Assembly: GCA_018830295.1 (NCBI GenBank)
Contig: JAHJSM010000001.1
Span: 321,980 to 385,979, forward strand
Direction: 5' to 3'
Source of the DNA: Patescibacteria group bacterium
Lineage (GTDB): Bacteria > Patescibacteriota > Minisyncoccia > Portnoybacterales > UBA2143
DNA length: 64,000 bases
Shown in pieces: positions 15,921 to 53,216 of this stretch (within the stretch, counting starts at the first letter, position 1; each line of letters opens with the position of its first letter). The notes beneath the pieces are model-generated. The model was not told where the DNA came from and did no database searches. It saw only the letters and a list, made by a program, of their open reading frames with translations. Both the position numbers and the translations under genes were made by a program.

Positions 15921-15953
15921 AGGGACAGTCCCTCGCGACGAGGGACTGTCCCT
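15921..15953. repeat. Family B palindromic element (GGGACAGTCCC-loop-GGGACTGTCCC)
   Basis: Inverted 11-12 nt arms with 9-nt loop tcgcgacga; same element at 9 other positions in window. Confidence 0.85.
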
Positions 15954-15962
15954 GTCATAATC

Positions 15963-15999
15963 TTTAGCCCTGATTTGGCAGAATAAATCAGGGCTTTTT
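15963..15999 (+). terminator. Rho-independent terminator
   Basis: AGCCCTGATTT-loop-AAATCAGGGCT hairpin followed by TTTTTTTATTTT. Confidence 0.5.
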
Positions 16000-16086
16000 T
16001 TATTTTCTTATTTGGCAGTTTTAAACAAAGGTGATAAAATTTAAATCCAAGGTCAGATCTCAAGTGTATAATTGAGATTATAGAAT

Positions 16087-16746
16087 ATGTCATCTTTTTC
16101 CCTTAAAATTATCGCCGTAATTACTATGGTCGCGGACCATGTCGGTTTTTTGTTCTTTCCTCATATATTATGGCTAAGAATTATAGGAAGAATTTCATTG
16201 CCAATTTTTGCGTTTCTTATAGGCGAAGGCTATGAAAAAACGAGCAATGTAAAAAAATATTTTTTTCGTCTTGCAATATTTGCCCTTATCTCTTTTGTGC
16301 CGCATTATTTCCTTTTTAAGGTCGGCAGCGCTCCGTACTCAGGAGGATTTAATATATTTTTTACGCTTACCGCTGGATTATTAGGACTAATTGCATTAAA
16401 TCGATACTCTACTTTTACGGGCATAACCGCGCTAATTGGGATAGCAACAGTTGCAGAGTTGCTGCGGTTTGATTACGGAGCATACGGAGTGCTCCTTATC
16501 TGCGCTTTGCGCGGGTTTAGACGCCACAAGATTAGAGATATTGCTTTTGTTGTTATTTTAATCGCGATTTCAGTCTCATTCAAAATTCCACCTGGAACAA
16601 ATTCACTGCAATATTTTTCTCTATTTGCTTTACTCCCTATTTTTTTCTACAACGGCGCTCACGGTATGCGTTTTCCCCGCATGTGGTTTTACTGGTTCTA
16701 TCCGGCGCACATTCTAATTCTTATATTCTTAAAAATTTATATGTAA
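16087..16746 (+). CDS. TraX-family membrane protein (F-pilin N-acetylation-like)
   Basis: N-terminus LKIIAVITMVADHVGFLFFP matches TraX signature (hydrophobic-K-aIA-x3-M-x2-DH-aG); about 6 TM helices, 219 aa; TATAAT at 16063. Confidence 0.55.
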   Translation: MSSFSLKIIAVITMVADHVGFLFFPHILWLRIIGRISLPIFAFLIGEGYEKTSNVKKYFFRLAIFALISFVPHYFLFKVGSAPYSGGFNIFFTLTAGLLGLIALNRYSTFTGITALIGIATVAELLRFDYGAYGVLLICALRGFRRHKIRDIAFVVILIAISVSFKIPPGTNSLQYFSLFALLPIFFYNGAHGMRFPRMWFYWFYPAHILILIFLKIYM

Positions 16747-17565
16747 TAATCCAATCCAATCTTCAATCGTTAACCTTTCGGCCCTGATTTGAACATCTAA
16801 ACCAAGTTCAATCAGGGCTTTTTTTATTTCCTCTTTATTAATTTTTAGCTTTTCCGATAAATTATTCGCCAACTGCTTGCGCGGTCTGGAAAATCCCGCT
16901 TTAACTAAGCGGAAAAATTTTTTCATATCAATATCTTTTGGCTTGCGGATATCGCTAATTTTGACAACAGCCGAATCAACTTTTGGTTTGGGCCAAAACG
17001 ATTGTTTTGGAACATCATAAAGAAGTTCAGGACGGCTATATATTTGAACGGAGACCGAGAGCAGGGTCATTTTACCTTGTGAGGCGCATATTCTCCGCGC
17101 GACTTCTCTTTGCATTAAGAAAATAATTGTTCGCGGAGGATTTTCCGATTCCAGCAATTTTCTAATAAGAAAAGAAGTTAAATAATATGGAATATTAGCG
17201 ACAATTTTGTAGGGCGCGGAGATAATGGGGGCTGCCCCCGCGGCGGGGGCAGCCCCCATTATCTTCAAAATATCACCAACTATAATTTCTACATTATCCA
17301 AATCGCCCAAATTTTCTTTTAGTATCTCGGCGACTTTTTTATCTTTTTCCACGGCGATTACTTTTTTCGCTTTTTGGGCTATTTTCCTCGTCAAGGCGCC
17401 TAAGCCAGGTCCGACCTCCAGAACAATATCCTCCGAAGAAATTTCGGCCGCCTTAACCATCTGGTCAACCACTCCTTCGTCAACCAAAAAATTCTGCCCC
17501 AGGACTTTGTTGGGACGGATGTTGTATTGTTTGAGGAGTTTTTTAATATTATTTTTAGTTTTCAT
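16729..17565 (-). CDS. rsmA: 16S rRNA (adenine1518/1519-N6)-dimethyltransferase RsmA/KsgA, carrying in-frame repeat insertion
   Basis: LGQNFLVDEGVVDQMV…VLEVGPGLGALT SAM-binding motif; …NIPYYLTSFLIRKL; the segment MGAAPAAGAAPII is encoded by the family A palindrome. Confidence 0.85.
   Translation of the reverse strand: MKTKNNIKKLLKQYNIRPNKVLGQNFLVDEGVVDQMVKAAEISSEDIVLEVGPGLGALTRKIAQKAKKVIAVEKDKKVAEILKENLGDLDNVEIIVGDILKIMGAAPAAGAAPIISAPYKIVANIPYYLTSFLIRKLLESENPPRTIIFLMQREVARRICASQGKMTLLSVSVQIYSRPELLYDVPKQSFWPKPKVDSAVVKISDIRKPKDIDMKKFFRLVKAGFSRPRKQLANNLSEKLKINKEEIKKALIELGLDVQIRAERLTIEDWIGLLHINF
17221..17263. repeat. Family A palindromic element (GATAATGGGGGCTGCCCCC-GCGGC-GGGGGCAGCCCCCATTATC) inside ksgA
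   Basis: Two 19-nt perfectly inverted arms; G5-CWG-C5 cores also at 51259-51289, 28742-28769, 33522-33533, 59299-59313. Confidence 0.85.
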
Positions 17566-19483
17566 ATCTATATTCTACCAATTCTTCCGGAATGTTGGAA
17601 ATAAATCGCGAGGGCGGGTTCGCCATCGTTTGTCCATAGAGGCATCGGCGCGCGGCGAAGGTTAGATACGCCTTTTGTTTGGCTCGGGTAATTCCGACAT
17701 AGCAGAGCCGCCTTTCTTCTTCTATTTGTTCGGTCGCCAGCAAACTTCTTGAATGGGGAAAAATTCCTTCTTCGCAGCCGACAATAAAAACAACGGGAAA
17801 TTCCAATCCTTTAGCGCAATGGAGGGTCATTAAATTGATTATTCCCTTCTCTCGCGAGAGTTCATCCGCCCCAGTGAGCAAAATAATTTCTTCTAAAAAT
17901 TGTTCTAGTCCTTTTTCTTTTTCAAGCGAATCATATTTGCCAGCAATCGTAAGGAGTTCTTGAATATTTTCCCATCGTCTCTCCCCTTCTTCCGTTGTCG
18001 GCGAAATCTTTCTGACATAATTTTCGTATTCGGTCTTGTTAATAATTATTTTAATCAATTCTGTCAGCGGTTCTTTTTGGCTCGCGTCTTTGAGTTCGTT
18101 GATTAGTTGAGCGAAATTTTTAATTTTGGCGTTTTTGCTTTCAAAAACCATGCTCGCTCTATCGGAAATTTCCTTTTGGACGGTAATTTTGCCGATGCCT
18201 CGCGGCGGAGTATTGATAACTCTTTTCAATCCAGCCAAGTCATCTGGGTTGGAGATTATTTTCAAGTAAGCCAAAATGTCTTTAACCTCTTTTCTTTCGT
18301 AAAACCTGACAGAGCCAACAATTTTATAAGGTAAGCCCGCCTTAAGAAATGCCTCTTCAATCGCGCGTGATTGGGCGTTGGTTCTGTAAAGGACAGCAAA
18401 GTCGTTTAAATTAAGCCCTTCCGCGCTCATCAATCCCACTATTTCCTCAATTAAAAAATCGCCTTCTTCTGTTTCGTTATTTGTTTGAATGATATTAATG
18501 AGCGCGCCTTCTGGATTTCTGGTCCAAAGTTTTTTTTCTTTGCGTTGAGTGTTTTTGGCAATAATGTGATGGCTCGCTTCTAAAATATTTTTAGTTGAAC
18601 GATAATTTTCTTCAAGCAAGACCAATTTTGCTTCAGGATAATTCTTTTCAAAATTAAGAATATTTCTAAAATCAGCTCCGCGCCAACTATAAATACTTTG
18701 GTCAGTGTCGGCGATAAACCAAAGATTTTTGTGCTTTTCGGCAAGCATTTTTATGAGCGCGTATTGGCTAAAATTCGTGTCATGCGCCTCGTCAACCGAA
18801 AGATACTGCCATTTGTTTTGGTATTTTTCCAAAACCGATGGGTTTTCTCTCAAGAGTTTTTCGGTCAGCATAATTAAGTCGTCAAAATCAAGGGCGTTGG
18901 ATTTTTTGAGCGCCGCTTGATACGCTAAATATATTTTAGCGACGGTTTTTGGAAAATATTCTCGCGCTTGTTCCGCGTAAGAGTTGGCGTCTATTAATTC
19001 ATCTTTGGCGCGCGAAATCGCCGCTTGAACGGAGGCGGGTTTGAATTGGTCAGGGCTAATTTCCAAGTCCTTAATTGCTTTTTTAATTAAAGAAAGTTGA
19101 TCGGTCGTGTCATAAATAACAAAATTATTTTTGTATCCCTCTTTACCGTCAAGAGAAAGTTTGCCGATGTCTCGTCTCAAAATTCTTAAACAAATAGAAT
19201 GAAAAGTGCCGATAGTGGGTTCGGGGACAGTCCCCTTTCTTGGGGACTGTCCCCAGTCGTCAAGTAATTTCCTTACCCGATCCCTCATTTCTTCGGCGGC
19301 CTTGTTGGTAAAAGTAACGGCTAATATATTTTCTGGGTAAATTCCTTTTTGAATTAAATAAACAATGCGATGAGTCAGGCATCTTGTTTTACCCGAACCA
19401 GGACCCGCGATAACTAAAACCGGCCCCCTTGTCGCGGCGGCCGCCTCCCTCTGTTTTGGATTGAGAGATGATAAAATATCCAT
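17555..19483 (-). CDS. pcrA: ATP-dependent DNA helicase UvrD/PcrA family, carrying in-frame family B repeat
   Basis: VLVIAGPGSGKTRCLTHRI (Walker A, helicase motif I), TFHSICLRIL (motif Ia), DEAHD; start placed at internal Met (MDILSSLNPKQREA) to avoid overlap, ORF track allows 19555. Confidence 0.85.
   Translation of the reverse strand: MDILSSLNPKQREAAAATRGPVLVIAGPGSGKTRCLTHRIVYLIQKGIYPENILAVTFTNKAAEEMRDRVRKLLDDWGQSPRKGTVPEPTIGTFHSICLRILRRDIGKLSLDGKEGYKNNFVIYDTTDQLSLIKKAIKDLEISPDQFKPASVQAAISRAKDELIDANSYAEQAREYFPKTVAKIYLAYQAALKKSNALDFDDLIMLTEKLLRENPSVLEKYQNKWQYLSVDEAHDTNFSQYALIKMLAEKHKNLWFIADTDQSIYSWRGADFRNILNFEKNYPEAKLVLLEENYRSTKNILEASHHIIAKNTQRKEKKLWTRNPEGALINIIQTNNETEEGDFLIEEIVGLMSAEGLNLNDFAVLYRTNAQSRAIEEAFLKAGLPYKIVGSVRFYERKEVKDILAYLKIISNPDDLAGLKRVINTPPRGIGKITVQKEISDRASMVFESKNAKIKNFAQLINELKDASQKEPLTELIKIIINKTEYENYVRKISPTTEEGERRWENIQELLTIAGKYDSLEKEKGLEQFLEEIILLTGADELSREKGIINLMTLHCAKGLEFPVVFIVGCEEGIFPHSRSLLATEQIEEERRLCYVGITRAKQKAYLTFAARRCLYGQTMANPPSRFISNIPEELVEYRYEN
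19223..19254. repeat. Family B palindromic element inside uvrD/pcrA CDS (translated as …GQSPRKGTVPE…)
   Basis: GGGGACAGTCCCC-tttcttg-GGGGACTGTCCCC within helicase ORF, length keeps frame. Confidence 0.85.
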
Positions 19484-19490
19484 TGCTAAT

Positions 19491-20765
19491 TTACTCAACT
19501 TCCCGCCAATTCTCGGCGCGGCGGCTGCCTCCTGGTCCGCTGGTGAAATTAACATTTTCTAAGCCCGTTTCATAACTAATAACCGCGTTGTTATCTAAAG
19601 CAATCTGGTAGGCGGTCGCTTCTCTGATTAAAATATTGTTATGCAAATGGATTAGGCCTTGCGAAGCGTAGAAAATCGCTCCCTGGGCGTTATTACTCAC
19701 ATCAACGGCTGGACTAGCTATATCCAAAGAATTATTAGTAGAAAGAAGCATAATAAAGCTTCCTTCTTGTCCCGAGCCCTGTAAATTGGCGTTGTTTCCC
19801 ACAGTAATTCTGCCATCGCTAATAATTATTCCGCTCGTTGAGCCAAAACTATCGTCTAATTTAACTGTCGCTTTATTTCTGATAATAATATCTCCTTCCA
19901 CATAAATCAATCCCGTAATGTTCAAAATAGAACTGTTGTCAATAATCATATTACCCGTAATTTTAATCGGTCCTAAAGAATCCGCTCCTCCATCAAGAAG
20001 GTAATCGCCAGAAAATGTTTCGCTCTCCGCCCCGTCGTTTTTCCAATTGTCTATTTGCTCTTGAGAAATAGGTAGGTCTTTGGCTTCAATTTCATTAGGT
20101 CCCATATCTTCAGAACTTCCGTAATCGCAATTAACAATACTGCCGCCTGAAACATAGTGGAGAACGCCCGTAATGTCAGAGTCCTGACAGGAATGCGTAT
20201 AAAGATCACCTCCGACATTAACGCTGTCAATTTTGTTTCCATTAATGGCGATCGTGACTGTGTCGGTTATTTCGCTTACCCCTCCTCCGAGCGGGAGAAT
20301 ACTTCCATTAGAAAAAACGTTGCCTTCAACGCGGCTATTATTGCCCATAATCATTCCTCCTTCGCCGACTTGAGCGCCATAAAAGAAAGAAACATCATCG
20401 GTCGTCACAAGATAAGCAACGCTTAGTTTTCTAATTCGTCCGTCGGCGTTGCCTCGCGAAGTTATTGTTTGAGAGCCGCCGATTAAATCCGATATTTCAA
20501 CAACGGTTGAATTGTTTTCTACTGATAAACTATTTGGGCTGGGAAAAAGCATTCCTTCTTTGAGGCGCAGCAAACTATCTTCAAGGCCTGATTCGGCGGC
20601 GTAATAACTTTCAATTGATTTGATTTTATCCCGCGCGCTAATCAAACTATTAAACGCTGAAAAACTTAAGCCAGAACCAACAATTAAGCCGATTGATAAA
20701 ATCAGCATAATGCTTAACAACAAAGCCCCTCCTTTTTCTCGCGCGTTTATTTTTATTATTTTAGT
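19491..20765 (-). CDS. Large pilus-associated protein with N-terminal TM (PilX/PilY-like minor pilin or tip protein candidate)
   Basis: N-terminal hydrophobic segment ALLLSIMLILSIGLIVGSGLSF after a short charged region, then Gly/Asn/Ser-rich beta-rich domain; last gene of pilin operon; start chosen at internal Met to give ATGA overlap with upstream gene. Confidence 0.4.
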   Translation of the reverse strand, partial: TKIIKINAREKGGALLLSIMLILSIGLIVGSGLSFSAFNSLISARDKIKSIESYYAAESGLEDSLLRLKEGMLFPSPNSLSVENNSTVVEISDLIGGSQTITSRGNADGRIRKLSVAYLVTTDDVSFFYGAQVGEGGMIMGNNSRVEGNVFSNGSILPLGGGVSEITDTVTIAINGNKIDSVNVGGDLYTHSCQDSDITGVLHYVSGGSIVNCDYGSSEDMGPNEIEAKDLPISQEQIDNWKNDGAESETFSGDYLLDGGADSLGPIKITGNMIIDNSSILNITGLIYVEGDIIIRNKATVKLDDSFGSTSGIIISDGRITVGNNANLQGSGQEGSFIMLLSTNNSLDIASPAVDVSNNAQGAIFYASQGLIHLHNNILIREATAYQIALDNNAVISYETGLENVNFTSGPGGSRRAENWREVE

Positions 20766-27099: not shown

Positions 27100-27332
27100 T
27101 AGGTCTCGATTTCGTAATTAAAGGTCAGACCTTTCAAAACTGAAAAGGTCTGACATCACGAGTAGCGACATTTCTTAAGGTCGCGCTCGAGAGGTCGGAC
27201 CTTTGGAACCCGACGAAAGACTTTCTTAACTGCGCAAAATCAAGGTCAGACCTTCTGAGCGAAACCTTAAGAAAGGTCTCTACTCCGAATGTCTGACCTT
27301 GTCGCAGGATAAAGGTCTGACCTTTAATTAAA
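27100..27332. repeat. Family C MITE-like composite element (terminal inverted repeats TTAAAGGTCAGACCTTT / AAAGGTCTGACCTTTAA with internal modules)
   Basis: Contains GGTC(A/T)GACC cores several times plus module GAGTAGCGACATTTCTTAAGGTCGCGCTCG shared with copies at 31861, 33707, 44858. Confidence 0.8.
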
Positions 27333-31684: not shown

Positions 31685-31860
31685 ATATTGTTTTCAATTC
31701 AAATTTCATTGCAAGTCCAAATAACCCCGATAAGGGCGATTGGGCTAAAATATTCCGATTAATAATCAAACTTCGCAACATAACCAATGAAAATTTGTAA
31801 TTTAGTTAATGACTTTCAAAATCGTATCAAAGAAAAGCCTAGATGTCAATTGGGACGGCC

Positions 31861-32062
31861 AAAAAGGTCCGACCTCTCAAGCGCGACCTTAAGAAATGTC
31901 GCTACTTGCGATGTCAGACCTTCTCGGTTCTAAAAGGTTTCTAAAAGGTCAGACCTTTCAAGACAACAACTCGTAACAGTTTATTTTCTCGTGACAAACT
32001 GATGGAAAGGTCTGACCTTTTATTTCTTTCTAAAGGTCGCGCTCATAGGTCGAACCTTTTCT
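31861..32062. repeat. Family C MITE-like composite element
   Basis: AAAAGGTCCGACC…AGCGCGACCTTAAGAAATGTCGCTACTTGCGATGTCAGACCTT…AAAAGGTCAGACCTTTC…GACAAACTGATGG…AAAGGTCTGACCTTTT. Confidence 0.8.
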
Positions 32063-32075
32063 TTTTCAATATTTT

Positions 32076-32106
32076 AGGGACAGTCCCTGTTGCGGGGACT
32101 GTCCCT
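32076..32106. repeat. Family B palindromic element
   Basis: AGGGACAGTCCC-tgttgcg-GGGACTGTCCCT. Confidence 0.85.
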
Positions 32107-32162
32107 AAAATATCCCCAAAATAAAAAGAACTGTCCTTTTACAGACAGTCCATTTTATTTAT

Positions 32163-33500: not shown

Positions 33501-33639
33501 AATAGTAAATATTTGATATTTGGGGGCAGCCCTCGATTAGTTAAAAAAATCCGTTTTGAAAAACGGATACTCTCCTCCCACTCCCATCCAAATCATCACT
33601 ATCTTATCACAACTCCAAATCCCTTGTCAAACGAAATTT

Positions 33640-33670
33640 GGGGACAGTCCCCGCAACAGGGACTGTCCCC
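33640..33670. repeat. Family B palindromic element
   Basis: GGGGACAGTCCCC-gcaaca-GGGACTGTCCCC. Confidence 0.85.
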
Positions 33671-33706
33671 AAATAACCCAAATGCCTTGACCTTTCGCCT
33701 GAAAGA

Positions 33707-33798
33707 AATTAAAGGTCAGACCTCTCAAGCGCGACCTTCGGAAATGTCGCTACTTGCGATGTCAGACCTTCTTGGTTCTTAAAGGTCTGACCTTTAAT
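33707..33798. repeat. Family C MITE-like element
   Basis: ATTAAAGGTCAGACC…AGCGCGACCTTCGGAAATGTCGCTACTTGCGATGTCAGACCTT…AAAGGTCTGACCTTTAAT. Confidence 0.8.
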
Positions 33799-33864
33799 TT
33801 CTTGACTGTCCCCAAATGCCTTGACCTTTCGCCTCGTTTTTTATATAATTTCAACTAGGAAATC

Positions 33865-33897
33865 GGGGACAGTCCCTCGCCGCGAGGGACTGTCCCC
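33865..33897. repeat. Family B palindromic element (identical to copy at 34222-34254)
   Basis: GGGGACAGTCCC-tcgccgcga-GGGACTGTCCCC. Confidence 0.9.
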
Positions 33898-33941: not shown

Positions 33942-34145
33942 ATGAAATTAAACGAAAGAGATAAAAAAATATTATTAAATGCTTTGAGACATTATTTAGG
34001 GAAGACACTCCGCGTAGATAAGGCCGCTGATGTAATGCGGTTGATGAAAAGAATAGAAGGAAAAGAAGATATACAAAACAAGTTAAGGAATCATCCAGAT
34101 TTCGTTAAAGATTTTAAAAATATTGGCGCGCTTATATTTTCTTAG
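33942..34145 (+). CDS. Small hypothetical protein (67 aa) in repeat-flanked cassette
   Basis: Strong RBS AAAGGGGGTG 6 nt upstream; helical basic protein; followed by terminator hairpin CCCTCC-caaaaa-GGAGGG TTTT (34184-34210). Confidence 0.35.
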   Translation: MKLNERDKKILLNALRHYLGKTLRVDKAADVMRLMKRIEGKEDIQNKLRNHPDFVKDFKNIGALIFS

Positions 34146-34221
34146 ATGGTTAATAAGCGCAGAGTCCCAAACCTCTAAACAAAAAACCCTCCCAAAAAGG
34201 AGGGTTTTAAATTTGTTTCTT

Positions 34222-34254
34222 GGGGACAGTCCCTCGCCGCGAGGGACTGTCCCC
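34222..34254. repeat. Family B palindromic element (identical to 33865-33897)
   Basis: GGGGACAGTCCC-tcgccgcga-GGGACTGTCCCC. Confidence 0.9.
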
Positions 34255-36382: not shown

Positions 36383-36410
36383 TTTTGACTATTGAAAGGC
36401 AAAAGAGAAA

Positions 36411-36493
36411 TTAAAGGTCAGACCTTCCCATCAGTTTGTCACTAAACAATAAGCAGTCGCGATAATGTCGTTTTGAAAGGTCTGACCTTTAAT
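36411..36493. repeat. Family C MITE-like element
   Basis: TTAAAGGTCAGACCTTCC-CATCAGTTTGTCAC-…AAGCAGTCGCGATAATGTCGTTTTG-AAAGGTCTGACCTTTAATT. Confidence 0.85.
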
Positions 36494-36595
36494 TCTCTTG
36501 CTATGTTTCTTTTTTATATCCAAATCTGAATTGCAGCCCCGCAATTCTGCGGGGCACTAATTTTTGAAACCAAATCAGAATTTGGACAAAAATTG

Positions 36596-36674: not shown

Positions 36675-36708
36675 GGGGACTGTCCCTATAATTATAGGGA
36701 CAGTCCCC
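36675..36708. repeat. Family B palindromic element (opposite arm order; loop TATAATTATA)
   Basis: GGGGACTGTCCC-tataattata-GGGACAGTCCCC. Confidence 0.85.
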
Positions 36709-36719: not shown

Positions 36720-37709
36720 TTATTTTACCACTTTATCAAACAACTGATATAACAACTTGATTCTTGTTTCTTTTTCTTTTCTTGGTCTTTCGGCGGCGCA
36801 GATGTCGGCTAAAATTGCTCCCATTATTCTTTCCGCTAAGCAGGCTTTCATTAAAGAATCAAAATTTTTGATTTTAAGTTTTTGGGCTGTTTTGCTAATC
36901 AGCGCGAGCCATTCATTGACCCCTTTTTCCCAACTGGCAAAATTCATTTTCCAGTTCGCCTCCATGAGCCAGTCCGACCAAATAATAAAAGACAACTCGT
37001 AGCCCTCGGGATACATTTTGTTATGCCCGAAATCAATTAGATAATATCCGCTTTCGCCTTTGAAAATCTTGGTCGGGTTAAAGAGCCCGTGGCAGTAAAT
37101 CATCTTTCTGTTTTTGAATTCTTTTTCAATCAGGTCCAATACTTTAAGATATCGCGGAATAAACTCTTTTGGCTTGATAATGGGCTTTTTGCCTGCCATA
37201 GAGAGTTCGGCTTCTTTGTTATGCGCTAATTGAAACCATCGGGCTATTCTGAAAATATGAAACTTATTCGCGGGTAGATTTTCAGCGAGTTCCAGTTTTC
37301 GTTCTGGCTTGGTTGGGAAATTCTTGCGATATTCCAAATACGCGTTAAGAAATTCTTCTCTTTGCCCGGGGTTAAGCGGTCTTTTGAATGACTCTCGCAA
37401 AGGCAATTTCTCCATTATCAACCATCCTCTGTTTGGCGATTCCATTTGGTAATCGTATACTTCCGCCGCTTTCAGAATATTGCTTTTATTCTGCTTGTTA
37501 AATCTGATTTGCGCGAGTGGCTCATCCGTGATTCTCGGGTCGTCGTAAATTTTCAAAATCGCTGGTTTGTCTTTGTATTCTCCCTCAAAAATCAAATCGC
37601 GGATATTATTTTTGGAATAATAAATTCCCCTTTTGATTTCTTTTTTAGGAATAAAACCCGTTTTTTTGAAAATCTCTTCCGCCCAAATATCTAATTTTGT
37701 TTGTTTCAT
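36720..37709 (-). CDS. Protein-kinase-fold phosphotransferase (APH/choline-kinase-like) family protein
   Basis: Catalytic-loop-like CHGLFNPTKIF and Mg-binding YLIDFGHN arrangement as in aminoglycoside/choline kinase family. Confidence 0.45.
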   Translation of the reverse strand: MKQTKLDIWAEEIFKKTGFIPKKEIKRGIYYSKNNIRDLIFEGEYKDKPAILKIYDDPRITDEPLAQIRFNKQNKSNILKAAEVYDYQMESPNRGWLIMEKLPLRESFKRPLNPGQREEFLNAYLEYRKNFPTKPERKLELAENLPANKFHIFRIARWFQLAHNKEAELSMAGKKPIIKPKEFIPRYLKVLDLIEKEFKNRKMIYCHGLFNPTKIFKGESGYYLIDFGHNKMYPEGYELSFIIWSDWLMEANWKMNFASWEKGVNEWLALISKTAQKLKIKNFDSLMKACLAERIMGAILADICAAERPRKEKETRIKLLYQLFDKVVK

Positions 37710-37727: not shown

Positions 37728-39179
37728 TTATTTAACCCAATATTTGCCTTTCATCTCTGAGTCAACTTCTTCTTTTTTTTCTTTTATCTTTTTATCTCTC
37801 GTTTTTAATTCTTTGTCGGAGAGTTTGTTTAGTTCTTTGGCTATTTCGGAGAGTTTCTTTTTTGTGTTGATTTTTGGGTTTTCTAACGCTTCAGAGAGGA
37901 GGGCGTTAAGGATTAGTCCTAATTTTGGTCCGGGTTTGGTTTCTAAAATTTTCATTAAATCGTCCCCGTTGATTTTGAGCATCTTGACGGAGATAGGATC
38001 TTTGGAAACCTTTTCAATTAGATATTCTAAATGTCTTAATTTGTAAGGAACCGCCTTTGGGCATCCGCTTCCCAATCTATCAGTTATTCGCAATTTGAGC
38101 AAGTCCCCCATATTCTCGCGCCCAACCCGCCTCAAAAGCCGCCTTACGCCCGTTTCGCTCACCTCGTCCACGCCGTAAACAAACATGTGGTTGCGGACTA
38201 AATGCGCGACTTTTTCAATTGTTTTTTTGGGAAATCTCAATCGTTGGAGAATGTTGGCGGCGAATCGGGCGCCGACAATATCGTGGTTGTAAAAGGTGGA
38301 ATATTCCCCTTGACCTCTTTTTGTTTGCGGTTTGGCAATGTCATGCAAAAGAGCGGCGAGGCGGACTTCCAGCCCGTACTTTCTTTTTGCGCCGAATTTC
38401 AAAGCCAAAACGCAATGGCGATAAATGCTGTAAATGTGATGCCTGTTTTGCGCGACGCCAATCCCCTTTTCCAATTCTGGAATAATATATTTTAGCAGAC
38501 CTGTTTCTCGCAATAATTCAATCGCCTCTTCTGGTTCATCCGCCATAATCATTTTAATCAGTTCATCGCGGATTCGTTCTTTAGCGATTGCTTGAAGCCA
38601 GGCAGCGTTCTTTTTAATCGCTTCCAGCGTCTGGGTTTCAATTTGCCATTTTCCGGCGGGCGAACCCAACTCCGCCGTGAAACGGATGGCTCTCAACATT
38701 CTCAAGGCGTCTTCGCCAAATCTGTTGTCCGCCTTCCTTACGGCTTTAATAAGCCGTTTTTTAATGTCTTCTTGCCCGCCAAAAAGGTCAATCAATTCTC
38801 CTTTTTTATTTAAAGCGAGCGCGTTAATCGTGAAGTCGCGGCGCGAAAGGTCTTTTTCTACGCGGATGGTGAAACTGACTTTATCGGGATGTCGCTTGTC
38901 GGTGTATCTTTGTTCCGTTCGAAAAGTGGTGATTTCAACCTCTTTCAACGCCCTTTCCTCGCTTTCCGTCTTGACTGTGACTGTTCCAAATTTGTTCGCG
39001 TAAAAACTGTCAGGAAATATGCCTTGAATTTCTTCGGGCTTCGCTTTGGTTGTAATATCCCAATCCTTTGGCTTTTTGCCAAGCAGAATGTCGCGAACGC
39101 AGCCGCCCACCGCGTATGCCTCAAATCCCCCCTTTTCCAATTTCCCTAAAATATCTTTTATTTCCTTCGGAAGTTTCAT
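37728..39179 (-). CDS. cca: CCA-adding tRNA nucleotidyltransferase with C-terminal HD domain
   Basis: GGCVRDILLGKKPKDWDITT (PolB-type NTase motif), RRDFTINALA, HD domain (HHIYSIYRHC…LLHDIAKP). Confidence 0.8.
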   Translation of the reverse strand: MKLPKEIKDILGKLEKGGFEAYAVGGCVRDILLGKKPKDWDITTKAKPEEIQGIFPDSFYANKFGTVTVKTESEERALKEVEITTFRTEQRYTDKRHPDKVSFTIRVEKDLSRRDFTINALALNKKGELIDLFGGQEDIKKRLIKAVRKADNRFGEDALRMLRAIRFTAELGSPAGKWQIETQTLEAIKKNAAWLQAIAKERIRDELIKMIMADEPEEAIELLRETGLLKYIIPELEKGIGVAQNRHHIYSIYRHCVLALKFGAKRKYGLEVRLAALLHDIAKPQTKRGQGEYSTFYNHDIVGARFAANILQRLRFPKKTIEKVAHLVRNHMFVYGVDEVSETGVRRLLRRVGRENMGDLLKLRITDRLGSGCPKAVPYKLRHLEYLIEKVSKDPISVKMLKINGDDLMKILETKPGPKLGLILNALLSEALENPKINTKKKLSEIAKELNKLSDKELKTRDKKIKEKKEEVDSEMKGKYWVK

Positions 39180-39269
39180 GGTCTCATCATAACGCGATTA
39201 GATTTTTTCCGCAATCTATCCCTAGACAATTTGACCGAGGGGCGGTTTTGGTTTAGAGTGGTGGTAGAT

Positions 39270-39342
39270 GCGCCCGTAGCTCAACGGATAGAGTATCGCG
39301 CTTCGGACGCGAGGGTTGGGGGTTCGAGTCCCTCCGGGCGCA
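39270..39342 (+). tRNA. tRNA-Arg (anticodon TCG)
   Basis: Acceptor GCGCCCG/CGGGCGC, anticodon stem TCGCG/CGCGA, loop CTTCGGA. Confidence 0.7.
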
Positions 39343-39353
39343 CATAAACATTC

Positions 39354-39425
39354 GCGCTCATAGCTCAATGGTAGAGCAGTTGCCTCTTAAGCAATTGGTT
39401 CCAGGTTCAAATCCTGGTGGGCGCA
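39354..39425 (+). tRNA. tRNA-Lys (anticodon CTT)
   Basis: Acceptor GCGCTCA/TGGGCGC, anticodon loop CTCTTAA, T-arm CCAGG TTCAAAT CCTGG. Confidence 0.75.
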
Positions 39426-39472
39426 CAAGTTTTAATTTGCTTTTTTTTGTTTTGTCTGATAGAATAGGGGAT

Positions 39473-39742
39473 ATGTTAAAACCAAGTAAAAAGTCAAAAA
39501 TAATTGGCGATTATAAGACGCATGAGAATGATACTGGCTCTTCGGAGGTTCAGATTGCTATTCTCACTAAGCAGATTGAAGAACTCGCCAAGCATCTTAA
39601 GACGCATACCAAAGACAACCACTCTCGCAGAGGGCTTTTGAAAATGGTCGCCAAAAGAAAAAAACTTCTTGACTATTTAAAAAAAGAAAACGAAAAAAGT
39701 TATAAGAAGGTTACCAAAAAGTTGGGGCTGAAGACAAAATAA
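39473..39742 (+). CDS. rpsO: 30S ribosomal protein S15
   Basis: [69 protein letters not shown]; upstream part of ORF-track frame overlaps tRNA-Lys and is not coding. Confidence 0.85.
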
Positions 39743-40278
39743 TGCCTATTCTTAAACATAAAGAACAGAGGGTTGCTGTTTTAGTTGATGTTCAAAATAT
39801 GTATCACTCCGCCAAAAACCTTTACGGGGCGAGAGCGAACTTTAACGAGATTTTGAAGGCGGCGGTCGGGCAGAGGAAGTTGATTCGGGCGATCGCTTAC
39901 ACAACAAGAACGGAAACACCTGAAGAAAAAACCTTTTTTGACGCTTTGGAGAAGGCTGGTTTTGAGGTCAAAACAAAGGATTTGCAGATTTTTCCGGGCG
40001 GAATGAAAAAGGGGAATTGGGATGTTGATATCGTAATTGACGCGATTAAATTTTCTAACGCAGTTGACGCGATTGTTTTAGTGACAGGGGATGGCGATTT
40101 CGTGCCTTTAGTTGAATATCTTAAATTAACTCGTGGCGTTCAAACGGAAGTCATTGCTTTTGAGCGAAGCGCTTCCGCTAAATTAAAGGAGGCATCAGAC
40201 GATTTCATTGATTTGAGCGAGAATAAGGGCAAGTATTTAATCAGAAGCGGCGGCGGGAAGAAGAATATCAAAAAATAA
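39742..40278 (+). CDS. NYN-domain (LabA/DUF88-like) putative ribonuclease
   Basis: VAVLVDVQNMYHS…DVDIVIDAIK…IVLVTGDGDFVPLVEYLK, acidic residues in NYN/PIN-like arrangement; located between rpsO and pnp. Confidence 0.6.
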   Translation: MPILKHKEQRVAVLVDVQNMYHSAKNLYGARANFNEILKAAVGQRKLIRAIAYTTRTETPEEKTFFDALEKAGFEVKTKDLQIFPGGMKKGNWDVDIVIDAIKFSNAVDAIVLVTGDGDFVPLVEYLKLTRGVQTEVIAFERSASAKLKEASDDFIDLSENKGKYLIRSGGGKKNIKK

Positions 40279-44423: not shown

Positions 44424-44857
44424 TTAAGAGGTCTATGGGGACAAACTGTGGATAAGTAGGGGTTGACAGGGATAACTTTTAAATTGTAAAATAGTAGTAA
44501 GTTTTTTGCTGGCTATTGTCGGCTAGTTCTTTAATAAAAAAGTCCTCGGAGGGAGGACTAATAGACAGCAAAAGATAAATGTTTTTCTGTAAGAAAATAA
44601 AATATAAAAAAGATGATGGTTATCCTATAAGAGATGGAGGGTGATAGGGTAATATCTCTACATTATAGAAAAACAAGAGAGGATTTGATCCTAAAAAATA
44701 AAAAAAACGAGGCATCAAATCCTCTCTAATATATATCACATATTTAGAGAATAGTCAGTAGTTTTCATAAGTTAGCGGCCACTTGGTCGTTTTTTTTGTT
44801 TGATTGATTTGTCTCGGCGGTTGGGGTAAAATAAGAGAGATGGATTGGTAAGCAAAG

Positions 44858-44915
44858 AGGTTTGACATAAAGAGTAGCGACATTTCTTAAGGTCGCGCTC
44901 GTAGGTCAAACCTCG
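44858..44915. repeat. Family C variant element (TIR GAGGTTTGAC…GTCAAACCTC around module GTAGCGACATTTCTTAAGGTCGCGCTCG)
   Basis: Shares internal module with 27100 and 31861 copies. Confidence 0.7.
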
Positions 44916-44923
44916 TCAAGATT

Positions 44924-46171
44924 ATGGAAGATTATATTTGGATATTTATTTTAATAGGATTTTTTATACTTTGGGGTTTAATTTCATGGATTCGTGAGAC
45001 GATTTCCAATTCAAAAAAATATTTAGAATTAAAACCAAAGTTAGACAACTTGGAAAATTCAATAAAAGAACACGAATCAAAAATTGATAAAGATAGAGAG
45101 GAATGGAGATTAAAAGTAAAAACATGGAATGAAAAAATAAAGAACGATAAAAAAGAGATTCAAAAAATAGCCAGACAGAAATCAATGGGATTTCCTTGGC
45201 TCGCAGAAGCATATGCTGATTATTTTGCGTTAAAAGATGGCGAATTAGAAGAATATTTAAAGTATAAAAAACATCCAGCATATACTGCCGCAGAAAATGT
45301 AAAAATTATCAAAAACGCAAAAAGAGAATTAGTTAGAGAAAATAAAATAATAAGTTATAAGATTAATTATTTTGAAAAACTATTTCCTTGGTTGTCGGAA
45401 TTAATAGCAGAAAATGAAGATGAAGAAATTCCCGTTCGAATTGATGATAATCTGGAAAATAAAGACGACGATAAAGATAGGGTTAAAGATTTTCTTACAC
45501 AGGAAGAATATAGAAAGTTGCCCTCCGTTGAGAGAAATCAAATGGCATTAGATAGATATTTAAAAAATAGATATAAATCAAAATGGGCAATTGGGAGAGA
45601 TTACGAAATGTATGTTGGGTATTTATATGAACAAAAAGGGTATTCCGTTGAATATACGGGGATTATTGATGGTTTTGCAGATCTTGGCAGAGATGTCATT
45701 GCTACAAAAGACGATGAGGTATGTATTATTCAGTGCAAGCGATGGGCGTGTTGGAAAGAAATGCGTGAAAAACATATTTTTCAATTATTCGGAACAACAA
45801 TGGAATATTGGATTAAAAATTTTAAAAACCATAGAAAACCAAAAAATTTCGAAGAATTTGCCAAATTTTTAAACGAAAATAAACTCAGACCAATATTTTT
45901 TACTTCAACAAATTTATCTAATAAAGCAAAAGAAATGGCGAATGCATTAAGTGTTGAAATAATAGAAAACGAGCCACTTGGTGAATTCCCAAGAATTAAG
46001 TGTAATATAAATAATGATGAATTTGGCTCACAAACAAAGATATATCATTTACCCATAGATCAACAATATGATAGAACAATAATCGGTAATCGAGCCGGAG
46101 AATTTTACGCTTTTACTGTCAAAGAAGCGGAGGAAGCTGGTTTTAGAAGAGCATTTAAACATAGTTATTAG
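44924..46171 (+). CDS. TM + coiled-coil protein with Mrr-like PD-(D/E)xK restriction-endonuclease domain
   Basis: N-terminal TM (IWIFILIGFFILWGLISWI), long K/E coiled region, then YEMYVGYLYEQKGYSVEYTGIIDGFADLGRDVIATKDDEVCIIQCKRWA… matching Mrr_cat core (D…D/E-x-QCK). Confidence 0.5.
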   Translation: MEDYIWIFILIGFFILWGLISWIRETISNSKKYLELKPKLDNLENSIKEHESKIDKDREEWRLKVKTWNEKIKNDKKEIQKIARQKSMGFPWLAEAYADYFALKDGELEEYLKYKKHPAYTAAENVKIIKNAKRELVRENKIISYKINYFEKLFPWLSELIAENEDEEIPVRIDDNLENKDDDKDRVKDFLTQEEYRKLPSVERNQMALDRYLKNRYKSKWAIGRDYEMYVGYLYEQKGYSVEYTGIIDGFADLGRDVIATKDDEVCIIQCKRWACWKEMREKHIFQLFGTTMEYWIKNFKNHRKPKNFEEFAKFLNENKLRPIFFTSTNLSNKAKEMANALSVEIIENEPLGEFPRIKCNINNDEFGSQTKIYHLPIDQQYDRTIIGNRAGEFYAFTVKEAEEAGFRRAFKHSY

Positions 46172-46219
46172 AAATTTGAAATTAACAATTCGGATGAAAA
46201 AATAAATAAAAAATAATTT

Positions 46220-46249
46220 GGGGACTGTCCCCTCTTGGGGACAGTCCCC
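46220..46249. repeat. Family B palindromic element
   Basis: GGGGACTGTCCCC-tcttg-GGGACAGTCCCC. Confidence 0.85.
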
Positions 46250-46419
46250 CTTTGGGATAGGGGAAAAAGGCGTCAGGAATCTTTTTGGAACAGATAAAAA
46301 ATCATTCGGCTATCGGAAAGCCGAATAAGGGAATAAAATAGAAGATAAAGATTTGGCATTGTTGATTTTTCGCTTTTTTGTGATAAAATGGAAGGAGTGA
46401 AGTTATTAAAAATAAAGAT

Positions 46420-48388: not shown

Positions 48389-48410
48389 TAAGAAGTATCC
48401 ACAATTAAAA

Positions 48411-48494
48411 TTAAAGGTCAGACCTTTCCATCAGTTTGTTGCTAGATAATAAGCAGTCGTGATGATGTCGTTTTGAAAGGTCTGACCTTTAATT
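48411..48494. repeat. Family C MITE-like element
   Basis: Near-identical to 36411-36493 copy (CATCAGTTTGT, AAGCAGTCGTGATGATGTCGTTTTG modules). Confidence 0.85.
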
Positions 48495-48500
48495 TCTTAA

Positions 48501-50314: not shown

Positions 50315-50354
50315 TTTTTTAACAATTTTTTAAAAATAGAAAAAAGGGGGTAAT

Positions 50355-50543
50355 ATGTCAGATGAAATAAAAGAATGTCCAGATCCAAGATGTAGAAGAG
50401 GATATATTTTTTGCGAAGGGATGCATGTCGTTTGCATGACTTGCAAGGGAGTAGGCGAAGGAACGGAGGAATTTTTTAAAAAGAACAAAGAAGAAGCGGA
50501 AAAGTTGAGACGCGAAATTTTTGCTGACGCCTGCGCTTCGTAG
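50355..50543 (+). CDS. Small Cys-rich hypothetical protein (62 aa)
   Basis: RBS AAAAGGGGG; CPDPRC…CMTCKG zinc-ribbon-like. Confidence 0.3.
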   Translation: MSDEIKECPDPRCRRGYIFCEGMHVVCMTCKGVGEGTEEFFKKNKEEAEKLRREIFADACAS

Positions 50544-50632
50544 TTCGTAGGCGGAAGGATTTTAAAGAGCCAAAGCAAAATGCTTTTGGCTCTTTTATTT
50601 TCCGCCGAAAACTGGTATTGTGTTAATAATTT

Positions 50633-50662
50633 GGGGACTGTCCCCAAGAGGGGACAGTCCCC
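50633..50662. repeat. Family B palindromic element
   Basis: GGGGACTGTCCCC-aagag-GGGACAGTCCCC. Confidence 0.85.
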
Positions 50663-50677
50663 AAATAACAAATTATT

Positions 50678-51937
50678 ATGAAAAATACAATTAAAAAAAT
50701 TACTCCCAACTCTCTTTTAAGCGCCTATCATTTCCTGCTTTCTTTTTTGGGCGCGGTTTTTTATGGCTTTCCCTCGCGAAAACTAAAAATAATCGGGGTG
50801 ACAGGGACGAATGGCAAGTCAACGACAGTGTTTTTAATCAATCAGATTTTAGAAAAGGCGGGATATAAGACGGCTTCTTTGTCGTCTATCTATTTTACAA
50901 CCAACGGCGATATTGAGCTAAACAATCTAAAAATGACCATGCCTGGTCGTTTTAAAATCCATAAGTTTTTGAGGCGGGCGGTTGAGGCGGGATGTCAATA
51001 CGCCGTTTTGGAAATAACTTCAGAGGGGATTAAACAGCATCGCCATCGTTTTATTGGTTTTGATACGGCTGTTTTCACTAATCTTACGCCTGAACATATA
51101 GAAAGCCACGGCGGATTTGAGAATTATAAAAAAGCGAAAGGAAAACTTTTTCAATCGCTTAAGCCAAATGGTAAATCAATTGTTAATTTAGACGACCCAA
51201 ACAGCCATTATTTCTTGCGATTCGCGGCGAAAGAAAAATGGGGATACACATTACAACAGGGGGCTGCCCCCGTGGCGGGGGCAGCCCCCGTCGTAAAAGG
51301 AGAGAAAATCGAGATAAAAAAATCTTATTCTTCATTCTTCATTAATAATTCATTATTCATAATTCATCTTTTAGGCAAATTTAATATTTCTAACGCCTTG
51401 GCGGCGATTGCGGTTGGAACGGCGGAAGGAATTTCTTTAGAGAAAATGAAGTTGGCTTTAGGGGAAATAAAAGGCATTCCCGGTCGTTTAGAAATAGTTA
51501 CTAAGGAACTATTTACAGTAATTGTTGATTACGCTCATACGCCAGACGCTTTAGAAAAGGTCTATCAAACCGCGCGAAAAATGTCTGATGGAAAATTAAT
51601 AGGCGTTCTTGGTTCGGCGGGCGGAGGCAGAGACAAATGGAAAAGACCTGAAATGGGAAAAATCGCGGAAAAATATTTGGATATGATTATTATTACTAAC
51701 GAAGACCCTTACGACGAAGACCCGAGCCAGATTATTAGCGAAATCGTTGAAGGGATAAAAAATAAAGAGGTTAAAAAAATTATTGACCGCAGAGAAGCAA
51801 TTCGCTACGCTCTAAAAATAGCGGAAAAAGACGATGTGGTTATTATTACGGGCAAAGGATGCGAATTATGGATGTGCGTTGAAGGAAATAAAAAAATCCC
51901 TTGGGATGACAGGAAAGTAGTTAAGGAGGAGATTTAA
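50678..51937 (+). CDS. Mur ligase family protein (MurE-like UDP-MurNAc-tripeptide synthetase), carrying in-frame family A repeat
   Basis: IIGVTGTNGKSTTVFL P-loop, DYAHTPDAL, ligase C-terminal domain; QQGAAPVAGAAPVV encoded by the palindrome. Confidence 0.7.
   Translation: MKNTIKKITPNSLLSAYHFLLSFLGAVFYGFPSRKLKIIGVTGTNGKSTTVFLINQILEKAGYKTASLSSIYFTTNGDIELNNLKMTMPGRFKIHKFLRRAVEAGCQYAVLEITSEGIKQHRHRFIGFDTAVFTNLTPEHIESHGGFENYKKAKGKLFQSLKPNGKSIVNLDDPNSHYFLRFAAKEKWGYTLQQGAAPVAGAAPVVKGEKIEIKKSYSSFFINNSLFIIHLLGKFNISNALAAIAVGTAEGISLEKMKLALGEIKGIPGRLEIVTKELFTVIVDYAHTPDALEKVYQTARKMSDGKLIGVLGSAGGGRDKWKRPEMGKIAEKYLDMIIITNEDPYDEDPSQIISEIVEGIKNKEVKKIIDRREAIRYALKIAEKDDVVIITGKGCELWMCVEGNKKIPWDDRKVVKEEI
51259..51289. 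repeat. Family A palindromic element inside Mur ligase CDS
   Basis: GGGGGCTGCCCCC-gtggc-GGGGGCAGCCCCC. Confidence 0.85.
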
Positions 51938-51950
51938 TAAGCATACAATT

Positions 51951-53216
51951 ATGATTTTCTTAGAAAAAATATTTTTTTATCTTTTGGTTTTCTGTTTGCC
52001 CTTCCAAACGCGTAAAGTGATTTGGCAGTGGGGTGAGAATGGTTTTAATGAGTGGACGAGCGCTTTTCTTTATTTAACCGATATTTTAATTTTAATTCTT
52101 TTTCTTTTTTGGTTTTTGAGGAACAGAGAAAAAAGATTTTTTAAGAATGGGATTAAGATGGCGAGGGGAGCAGTCGCAAGAGGCGGTTTTTGGCTGATTG
52201 TTTTTTTGGCGATTGCTTTGGTTTCTCTGATTCAGGCGCGTAATATTCAATTAGGTTTCTATTCTTGGCTTAAACTTTTAGAATTTGCTCTTTTGTTTTT
52301 CTATCTAAAAAATAATTTTAAAGATTTATTTAATTTTACCCGCCTTTCCCAAGCGCTTGTAATGAGTGGGTTTGCTCAGTCGTTGATTGTTTTATGGCAA
52401 TACGCGGGGCAAAAAGGGCTGGAGATAAACGGCGTCGCTAAAATTATTGTTGATGGAGTGACACTTATGCGCCCTTACGGTTCTTTTCCTCACCCAAATG
52501 TTTTGGCGGCTTTTCTTTTACTCTGTATTTTTTGCCTCTATTCTCTCTGGCTCGCGAAAAAACGATCTTTTGTTTGGAATTGTCTTTTGATTATTGCTGG
52601 ATTTTTAATAATATTCGCTTTTTGGCTCTCTTTTTCGCGAACCGCCCTTTTAGTTTTTTTAATCACAATCCCTCTTTATTTTATCCTTCTATTAAAACAA
52701 AAAAGAAATATCCTTATCTTTCTCTTTATTGTTTTCTGCAGCGTTCTTTTTGTTTTTTTGGCCGGGGCGGAAGTTTCGTCTCGGTTCGCGATTTCAACAT
52801 CAGAGCAAGCGGTTGGATTGCGCGCTTTTTATAATGAAACGGCTCTTTCTATTATCAATCAATATCCTCTATTCGGAGTAGGTCAGGGAAATTTTGTTTG
52901 GGAAATCAGCAAAGCGCTTGATTTAATGTCTGCCTGGCTCTATCAGCCGGTCCATAATATCTATTTGCTTATCGCCAGCGAAACAGGGTTGTTCGGGTTG
53001 ATCGCTTTTCTTATGTTTCTTTTTTTGATTTTGTCTGAGATATTTGGGGACTGTCCCCGTTGCGGGGACAGTCCCCAAATAATAGGGCTTGTCATTGTTT
53101 TCTTCGGATTTCTATTTATGGCTCTATTTGACCACTACTTCTGGACAATTCAGCAAGGGCAGTTAATGTTTTGGTTGGTCTTGGGCGTTATCGCAAGCAA
53201 TTCGGCTATCCGATAG
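51951..53216 (+). CDS. O-antigen ligase / Wzy_C-domain membrane protein, paralog 3, carrying in-frame family B repeat
   Basis: Polytopic, PVHNIYLLIASETGLFGL Wzy_C motif; the repeat is translated as GDCPRCGDSPQ. Confidence 0.55.
   Translation: MIFLEKIFFYLLVFCLPFQTRKVIWQWGENGFNEWTSAFLYLTDILILILFLFWFLRNREKRFFKNGIKMARGAVARGGFWLIVFLAIALVSLIQARNIQLGFYSWLKLLEFALLFFYLKNNFKDLFNFTRLSQALVMSGFAQSLIVLWQYAGQKGLEINGVAKIIVDGVTLMRPYGSFPHPNVLAAFLLLCIFCLYSLWLAKKRSFVWNCLLIIAGFLIIFAFWLSFSRTALLVFLITIPLYFILLLKQKRNILIFLFIVFCSVLFVFLAGAEVSSRFAISTSEQAVGLRAFYNETALSIINQYPLFGVGQGNFVWEISKALDLMSAWLYQPVHNIYLLIASETGLFGLIAFLMFLFLILSEIFGDCPRCGDSPQIIGLVIVFFGFLFMALFDHYFWTIQQGQLMFWLVLGVIASNSAIR
53046..53076. repeat. Family B palindromic element inside CDS
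   Basis: GGGGACTGTCCCC-gttgc-GGGGACAGTCCCC. Confidence 0.85.

Follow-up and report, generated by a model that had tools for sequence, protein, structure and literature searches.

The DNA analysed here (the window, hereafter) is a stretch of 64,000 nt from a Patescibacteria group bacterium (contig JAHJSM010000001.1 of assembly GCA_018830295.1, positions 321,980 to 385,979). Its G+C content is ~40%; it encodes NusA, RNase Y, ribosomal proteins, type IV pilus genes, FemAB, a Mur ligase, PolX, and three Wzy_C proteins, and the best protein matches of the window proteins carry the names Patescibacteria or Portnoybacteria. The original prediction, made from the letters alone, had listed ten units of a short palindromic element, family B, in this DNA; all ten were present at the coordinates given there when both strands of the 64 kb were considered. 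Each unit has the form GGGGACWGTCCCC-(3-10 nt)-GGGGACW'GTCCCC (n = 10; length, 30-45 nt), and units are designated A..T or T..A according to the centre bases of the two arms. Families A and C, which are mentioned in places below, are two further sets of palindromes in the window. The copies of family B, with one truncated half-unit, are as follows (the strand is that of the gene).

Copy 1, 15921..15953: AGGGACAGTCCCTCG-CGA-CGAGGGACTGTCCCT, A..T, -31.9 kcal/mol; 10 nt past the stop codon of the open reading frame (ORF) at 15386-15910 (plus strand), before a separate T-tract terminator hairpin (15966-15995).
Copy 2, 19223..19254: in frame in the uvrD/pcrA-like gene at 17555-19555 (minus strand), encoding WGQSPRKGTVPE.
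Copy 3, 32069..32113: a 45-nt palindrome, ATATTTTAGGGACAGTCCC-TGTTGCG-GGGACTGTCCCTAAAATAT; between the stop codon of nusA (minus strand) and the start of the RNase Y gene (minus strand), past the terminator-like hairpin of nusA.
Copy 4, 33636..33674: ATTTGGGGACAGTCCCCGCAACAGGGACTGTCCCCAAAT; 136 nt upstream of the nusA start.
Truncated half-unit, 33802..33815: TTGACTGTCCCCAAAT; adjoining a duplicated flank, GCCTTGACCTTTCGCCT, beyond a family-A element.
Copy 5, 33865..33897: GGGGACAGTCCCTCG-CCG-CGAGGGACTGTCCCC; between a promoter-like site (33821-33849) and the ATG of a small ORF (33943-34146, plus strand), and therefore probably in a 5' untranslated region.
Copy 6, 34222..34254: identical in sequence to copy 5; 10 nt past the stop codon of a thioredoxin-reductase-like gene (34265-35158, minus strand), beside a bidirectional terminator (34183-34208).
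Copy 7, 36675..36708: GGGGACTGTCCCTATAATTATAGGGACAGTCCCC, T..A; 11 nt past the stop codon of the ORF at 36720-37709 (minus strand) and 8 nt from a tRNA-Ala gene.
Copy 8, 46220..46249: GGGGACTGTCCCCTCTTGGGGACAGTCCCC; 48 nt past the Mrr_cat gene, at the right edge of a strain-variable island (44800-46300).
Copy 9, 50629..50666: ATTTGGGGACTGTCCCCAAGAGGGGACAGTCCCCAAAT; 11 nt upstream of the Mur-ligase ATG.
Copy 10, 53041..53081: TATTTGGGGACTGTCCCCGTTGCGGGGACAGTCCCCAAATA, -36.8 kcal/mol; in frame in a Wzy_C gene (51951-53216, plus strand), encoding IFGDCPRCGDSPQI.

A search of both strands with GGGACTGTCCCC, allowing at most one mismatch, gave 32 arm matches, against 0.02 expected (100 shuffles; shuffle maximum, 1). 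A single arm is a 13-nt palindrome in itself (GGGGAC-W-GTCCCC), its 11-nt core, GGGACWGTCCC, is perfect in 20 of the 20 arms, and every arm reads GGGGACAG on one strand (AGGGACAG in copies 1 and 3). The two arms are inverted and have complementary centres without exception (20/20 arms), and together with the short spacer they form a perfect hairpin of 13-19 bp; in four copies the palindrome reaches into ATTT/AAAT flanks, which brings the unit to 38-45 nt. The predicted RNA folds of the units were likewise perfect hairpins, at -30.5 to -36.8 kcal/mol (z-scores, -6.5 to -8.9). Apart from the truncated half (33802-33812), no decayed or solitary family B arm was detected in the 64 kb at two or fewer mismatches. 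The density is ~1 doublet per 6 kb. The units had been said to occur in either arm order; two forms do exist, but the difference between them is the centre base only (six units A..T, four units T..A). All six A..T units and the T..A copy 7 lie to the left of the GC-skew switch (~40 kb), and the remaining three T..A units lie to the right of it (Fisher p = 0.03, n = 10); because the isomer is strand-symmetric, this link is possibly a matter of chance. The view that the loops are related, and that the unit as a whole is conserved, held: three loop subfamilies were recognised, namely GCAAC/GTTGC (copies 3, 4, and 10; copy 3 reversed is copy 4, and the loop of copy 10 is flipped relative to that of copy 4), AAGA/TCTT (copies 2, 8, and 9; copies 8 and 9 are exact reverse complements of each other), and TCGCSRCGA (copies 1, 5, and 6; copies 5 and 6 are identical). 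An assembly artefact was excluded, since the copies were found again in independent ENA, JGI, and NCBI assemblies. An Rfam search of the window and 12 repeat-rich loci returned no matching family, only tRNAs and one riboswitch, and a literature search with the 11-mer sequence returned only eukaryotic primers.

Eight of the ten units are outside credible genes. When ORFs were assigned mechanically (cover, 92%, two doubtful ORFs included), six of the ten still fell in the uncovered 8%. Copies 1, 6, and 7 are located 10-11 nt past stop codons, before separate canonical terminators; a short distance past the stop codon is the position reported for repetitive extragenic palindromes (REPs; PMC3733652). 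We considered whether the units are themselves intrinsic terminators and rejected this, because no T-tract follows copies 1, 3, 6, 7, or 8 on the 3' side in the sense direction and separate canonical terminators are nearby.

The other two units, copies 2 and 10, are in frame in genes, as had been predicted, and encode the expected peptides (WGQSPRKGTVPE and GDCPRCGDSPQ, respectively). The spacer between helicase motifs Ia (TFTNKAA) and Ib (TFHS), in which copy 2 is placed, is 29 residues here and 21-24 residues in most of 120 UvrD orthologues; in the alignment to PcrA (1pjr), an 8-residue gap opens exactly at DWGQSPRK. The loop that holds copy 10 connects hydrophobic helices of the Wzy_C protein, and relatives of this protein (72-79% identity) read SRTRAGKSAPYLG where the window protein reads SEIFGDCPRCGDSPQIIG. 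In alignments of orthologues, the segment is absent from both genes of a relative with 75-80% protein identity and from most of the 120 orthologues of each protein. The peptide did not turn up apart from palindromic DNA; the distant UvrD orthologue P0063, which reads GQSP..GTVP, carries the palindrome in its DNA. RGQSPS in the Wzy_C orthologues P0131 and P0135 was at first read as a single arm; for P0135, this was ruled out by its DNA (GGGCAGAGCCC). As to the claim that about 10 residues are added, the in-frame peptides are present, but the net gain is +2 amino acids in UvrD relative to the nearest relative (+8 relative to PcrA 1pjr) and +5 in Wzy_C relative to most close relatives. Given this small net gain in length, the element looks like a partial replacement of loop sequence at recurrent hot spots, and not like a clean insertion of +10 residues. 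The sequence itself shows that no frame of the unit is interrupted by a stop and that each frame encodes Gly-x-x-Pro, and for this reason the unit is tolerated in protein loops.

The same loops contain palindromes in other organisms. Copy 2 is also present in another strain (L124), and copy 10 in three further contigs (L123, L187, and L199). A UvrD orthologue with 63% identity, from DNA of 31% G+C, has a family B unit in the same frame and at the same distance from IGTFHS. In the Wzy_C gene of the above-mentioned relative (L121, 8129-9475) the loop holds a different palindrome, ATTCCGGGTCAAGCCCGGAAT (EWIPGQARND), the UvrD loop of L258 holds a 59-nt double doublet, GAGGGCWGCCCTC, and that of L259 a decayed version thereof. 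Sites already holding a palindrome thus appear to be re-used or re-targeted. Note that seven close UvrD orthologues (P0055, P0063, P0065, P0082, P0087, P0088, and P0090; about 990-1077 amino acids) bear intein domains (Hint, Intein_splicing, and LAGLIDADG), which the UvrD of the window does not have.

Comparison with close strains was possible at copy 9; such strains are represented by assembly GCA_018899715.1 and by the JGI samples Ga0180732, Ga0180015, and Ga0180007. An ENA contig (L123), 98.9% identical to the window over 8.4 kb, keeps the Wzy_C copy and lacks copy 9 as well as two family-A elements (at 48409, 93 nt, and 53890, 69 nt), and a JGI contig (L187) shows the same absences; gain or loss of the whole doublet has thus occurred between strains that are ~99% identical. 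The empty/filled difference at copy 9 in L123 is 46 nt, and at this site, the only empty/filled pair, we found no target-site duplication but only a 3-nt ATT microhomology. In another contig (L220) copy 9 is present, and sequence divergence starts sharply right after the element. At the junction of the island in L187 there is a hybrid doublet, GGGGGCAGCCCCCGCAGACGGGGGACTGTCCCC, made up of one family-C arm and one family-B arm. Family B is therefore dynamic: it varies between strains, as the absence of copy 9 from a 98.9% identical strain shows, and it is associated with breakpoints. The relative GCA_964503645.1 (loci L121 and L122; 75-80% protein identity), mentioned above, is without the UvrD and Wzy_C copies and has no doublets and one solo arm, accompanied by a GCAAC loop, in 32.5 kb. 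The best-supported reading of these comparisons is that family B has expanded specifically in the lineage of the window.

Two regions near these copies differ further between strains. The Mrr_cat restriction-endonuclease gene and copy 8 together form the strain-variable island at 44800-46300; in L187 (133-2500) the Mrr_cat island is exchanged for ~2.3 kb with two other ORFs. The Mur-ligase gene shows mosaic divergence from L220 at 50672-50830 and 51125-51370, and the N-terminus of the L220 Mur ligase resembles that of the distant relative. These divergent tracts begin right after copy 9 and surround a family-C palindrome, which suggests that recombination breakpoints lie at repeats in this gene.

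The core is not confined to this lineage. An exact scan with one genome per species found at least 120 loci in many phyla, and a flank-restricted metagenome scan found 87 loci; the outer flanks covary in many families of these other genomes. Among the genome-scan matches listed, the centre bases were AA/TT in 108 and AT/TA in 43, and in a second, metagenome set they were equal in 97 and complementary in 46. In a scan of viral contigs, pairs of GGGACWGTCCC occurred at 13 loci and pairs of GGGTCWGACCC at 25 loci, of which many come from homologous small contigs, so that the counts are not independent; palindromes matched in composition gave 1, 2, and 0. Eight IMG/VR contigs (L142, L145, L146, L150, L154, L156, L159, and L164; 4-10 kb; G+C about 0.7) are apparently related, and each has one or two copies of GGGGTCAGACCC-GCA-GGGTCTGACCCC, which may represent a hairpin conserved in a small replicon. 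Blind clustering of the ORFs within 2.5 kb of the motif at 120 genome loci gave no common neighbour (largest cluster, 9 loci).

Transposases were sought separately, and only this targeted search brought out a link to them. The search for REP-associated tyrosine transposases (RAYTs) started from the sequences of E. coli YafM and IS200 TnpA and was then repeated with a profile from retrieved proteins; the candidates were checked with Pfam (PF01797, Y1_Tnp). Y1 transposase genes with GGGACWGTCCC arms on both sides were identified with Pfam or the RAYT profile in four cases (L198, L091/L250, L126, and L223), and with the gene from Metabacillus malikii the arm-flanked set is as follows.

L198: a Bacillaceae-like contig; the protein shares 72% identity with the 'REP element-mobilizing transposase RayT' of Metabacillus malikii.
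L091/L250: Planctomycetota.
L126 and L223: two further contigs.
L260: Metabacillus malikii; the RayT gene has the flanks GGGGGACTGTCCCCC and GGGGACAGTCCCCC.

A Rubeoparvulum RAYT with 59% identity has the flank GGGGTCWGACCCC. The repeats thus stand as terminal inverted repeats (TIRs) around TIRYT-like genes in L198, L091/L250, L126, L223, and L260, i.e., in other organisms. Near the RayT gene of Metabacillus malikii (L260, 2014-2171) there are also five units containing GGGACAGACCC, a variant arm in which the within-arm palindrome is broken, in tandem at a spacing of 39-40 nt.

From these data, we consider it likely that family B belongs with the non-autonomous, REP/REPIN-like elements of the GGGGWSAS (TIRtron) kind, REPINs being hairpin-forming pairs of inverted REPs. 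What is found in the window is a short G+C-rich palindrome in ten units of 30-45 bp within 64 kb, eight of them outside credible genes. The GTAG and CGTC tags are absent, and therefore the element was not filed under the classical REP superfamilies. The core is associated with Y1 transposases in genomes of several other phyla, and by homology we infer that such an enzyme exists and acts in the genome of the window. The likely mechanism is one in which a Y1 transposase, with a single gene copy elsewhere, recognises the hairpins while the DNA is single-stranded and cuts and rejoins them without target-site duplication, whereby whole doublets would spread in trans; such spread would explain the subfamilies with identical loops. 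In this gene-dense genome, copies would survive only at sites of low harm (past stop codons, in 5' leaders, and in surface loops where proteins vary), and the different family members in the same UvrD and Wzy_C loops across lineages would come from apparent re-use of palindrome sites.

The two further sets of palindromes in the window have a similar architecture. Family A is 70-95 nt long, with arms (AAAGGTCWGACCTTT) that are themselves palindromes and are set 45-50 nt apart; family C consists of GGGGGCWGCCCCC doublets, and is set apart from family B by a compensatory change inside the arm, from A-T to G-C. Families A, B, and C thus have a common palindrome-of-palindromes design with compensatory within-arm changes. 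They are located as follows.

Family A: 27122-27320, 31857-32025, 33707-33800, 36409-36494, 48408-48495, and 53897-53974.
Family C, doublets: 17220-17264 and 51259-51289.
Family C, solo arms: 28743 and 59302.

Family C is in frame in KsgA (GAAPAAGAAP) and in the Mur ligase (GAAPVAGAAP) of the window, and its arms are unaltered in L220 despite flanks that are ~15% different. The core can be written more generally as GG-N-C-W-G-N'-CC, with GGGACWGTCCC, GGGTCWGACCC, and GGGGCWGCCCC as members. More tentatively, and with considerable doubt, one might suppose that a superfamily with this core travels together with one Y1 (TIRYT-like) clade through at least six phyla, including the ultra-small Patescibacteria, its repeats overwriting one another at the same protein loops and marking recombination breakpoints. 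If so, the loops concerned would be UvrD Ia-Ib, Wzy_C, KsgA, and the Mur ligase, and the GG-N-C-W-G-N'-CC repeats would be a targeted generator of loop and island variation and not passive junk.

As for the rest of the window, a block of lower G+C (0.35-0.40) at 3300-13800 encodes a VirB4/TraG-like ATPase (5779-7605), a TSP3-repeat protein, and many ORFs with no Pfam match; this block is possibly an island for conjugation or type IV secretion, and no family B copy lies in it. At ~39000-40000, adjoining tRNA-Arg/Lys and rpsL, the GC skew changes sign and the gene orientation turns from minus to plus; this may be the replication origin region.

Several observations weigh against family B being a REP/REPIN-like element moved by a Y1 transposase. 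No Y1 or other transposase was found in the 64-kb window with Pfam and the RAYT profile, and none was found in the small contigs of the same species. No conserved GTAG/CTAC or CGTC/GACG tag stands beside the units, of which the flanks are ATTT/AAAT or unrelated. At the copy 9 site, the lack of a target duplication and the removal of 8 extra bases would fit a slippage deletion equally well. In other phyla the centres are mostly equal, whereas all ten units here have complementary centres, which is unexplained. Lastly, the arms are perfect amid varying loops and flanks, and they persist inside diverged alleles and at the same UvrD codon position in the 63%-identical orthologue; both of these could instead mean selection for a host function.

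This last point belongs to the explanation that survives best among the rivals, although we consider it unlikely: the units would be hairpins selected by the host, either as stabilisers or attenuators at RNA 3' ends or as sites for a dimeric nucleoid or topology protein, the self-palindromic arm being a protein site of two-fold symmetry. Selection of this kind would agree with arm cores that are all perfect while the loops vary, with within-arm palindromy maintained in families B, C, and A by compensatory changes, with arms unchanged in alleles of which the flanks are ~15% different, with the outer flanks that covary in other genomes, and with the copies 10-11 nt past stop codons. Yet the neighbouring genes are unrelated and some copies are inside coding loops, the 75-80% relative with the same genes does without the copies, and so does a 99% identical strain in the case of copy 9; no T-tract follows copies 1, 3, 6, 7, or 8 in the direction of transcription, and the identical loops within the subfamilies indicate copying. 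A host function and mobility are not exclusive, since REPs are both mobile and co-opted.

Still less probable is an origin that needs no transposase, by fold-back (template-switch) replication and gene conversion with loss by slippage. Two rounds of inverted duplication would be expected to give a nested palindrome with complementary centres, slippage predicts the ATT microhomology and the asymmetric ends of the copy 9 indel, and the loop flips between copies (copy 10 against copy 4) and the solo arm with its GCAAC loop in the relative are in keeping with this origin; however, it leaves unexplained both the identical units of 30-33 nt at unlinked loci and the recurrence of the 11-13 nt core in many phyla, where it flanks Y1 genes. 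That the units are miniature inverted-repeat transposable elements (MITEs) derived from a DDE transposon is very improbable, and this reading was rejected: they are indeed short, dispersed, and strain-polymorphic, with terminal inverted symmetry and AT-rich flanks, but the only empty/filled pair has no target-site duplication, there is no internal sequence derived from an insertion sequence, 30-45 bp is far under the usual sizes of MITEs, Pfam found no DDE transposase in the window, and the repeats that the core matches are flanks of Y1 transposases. Least credible of all, and likewise rejected, are uptake signals for natural competence arranged as inverted pairs, since such signals, although type IV pilus genes are present in the window and Neisseria uptake sequences often form inverted pairs after genes, are typically single, at ~1 per kb, and widely in coding DNA, whereas none of the 20 arms here stands alone and the 64 kb hold 10 units.

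If family B is, as we consider likely, a REP/REPIN-like element of the GGGGWSAS kind, REP/REPIN-type selfish DNA would extend to the streamlined genome of an uncultured, Patescibacteria-type organism, where the repeats end up in essential genes because there is little intergenic space. It would also tie an unnamed repeat, through the GGGGWSAS core, to the poorly characterised TIRYT / subclass 2.1 transposases, for which one survey found no REP-like partners and earlier work described flanking TIR repeat families. The natural empty/filled alleles and the recurrences at the same sites are usable for studying target choice, and odd G-x-x-P inserts in candidate-phyla proteins can be repeat DNA, which should be borne in mind in annotation.

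The phenomenon as such is already known. Intragenic, in-frame REPs and REP dimers that add tens of residues have been published for uvrA/B, UvrD/Rep helicase, recBCD, and polymerase genes (PMC3733652); these are tagged with GTAG or CGTC and come from Proteobacteria, Verrucomicrobia, and Rickettsia, whereas family B is untagged and lies in a genome of the candidate-phyla-radiation type. New are the host lineage, the compact nested-palindrome form, the recurrent use of the same loops, and the link to a TIRYT-type motif across phyla. The original prediction had compared the element with the Rickettsia palindromic elements (RPEs). This holds as a functional analogy, in that palindromic repeats are tolerated in frame and add surface peptide segments, but RPE-1 is about 100-150 bp and RPE-4/RPE-6 are REPs of the CGTC type, whereas family B is 30-45 bp and has no CGTC; the host lineage is another, there is no sequence relationship, and the resemblance is in outcome only. 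The closest class is that of the REP/REPIN and TIRtron-type repeats.

With REPINs (Bertels and Rainey 2011, PMC3116915), family B has in common the two inverted copies of a short self-palindromic unit that form a hairpin, doublets that are better conserved than singlets, extragenic and dispersed copies, asymmetric excision-like differences, and insertion into or beside existing elements. Classical REPINs differ in that their REPs, of 25 nt with a GTAG head, are ~70-110 bp apart, whereas family B has a 3-10 nt spacer and no GTAG, and in that they are mobilised by RAYTs, whereas family B is linked to Y1 genes in other genomes only. The TIRs of TIRYT genes have a common GGGGWSAS motif and belong to dispersed, partly self-complementary repeat families (Di Nocera 2013, PMC3733652), which are moderately abundant and occur as dimers or clusters (PMC3733652); the flank consensus of RAYT subclass 2.1 is GGGG[AT][CG]A[CG] (Quentin 2018, PMC6006769), TIRYT / subclass 2.1 being group 1 of Bertels and comprising IS200-like Y1, HUH transposases. 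Family B differs from TIRtrons in that no transposase was seen in this window, in that it is a compact doublet (3-10 nt spacer) at ~1 per 6 kb, in a Patescibacteria-type genome and also inside genes, and in that the flanked transposases found are 181-212 amino acids, compared with a median of 238 with a C-terminal helix-turn-helix domain in subclass 2.1. The likeness lies in the start of the family B arm, GGGGACAG, which fits both GGGGWSAS and GGGG[AT][CG]A[CG], in the core, which also borders Y1_Tnp genes of Metabacillus, Planctomycetota, and other contigs, and in the NHIH / FQ / YIHRNP signatures of the L198 transposase, which are close to those tabulated for subclass 2.1.

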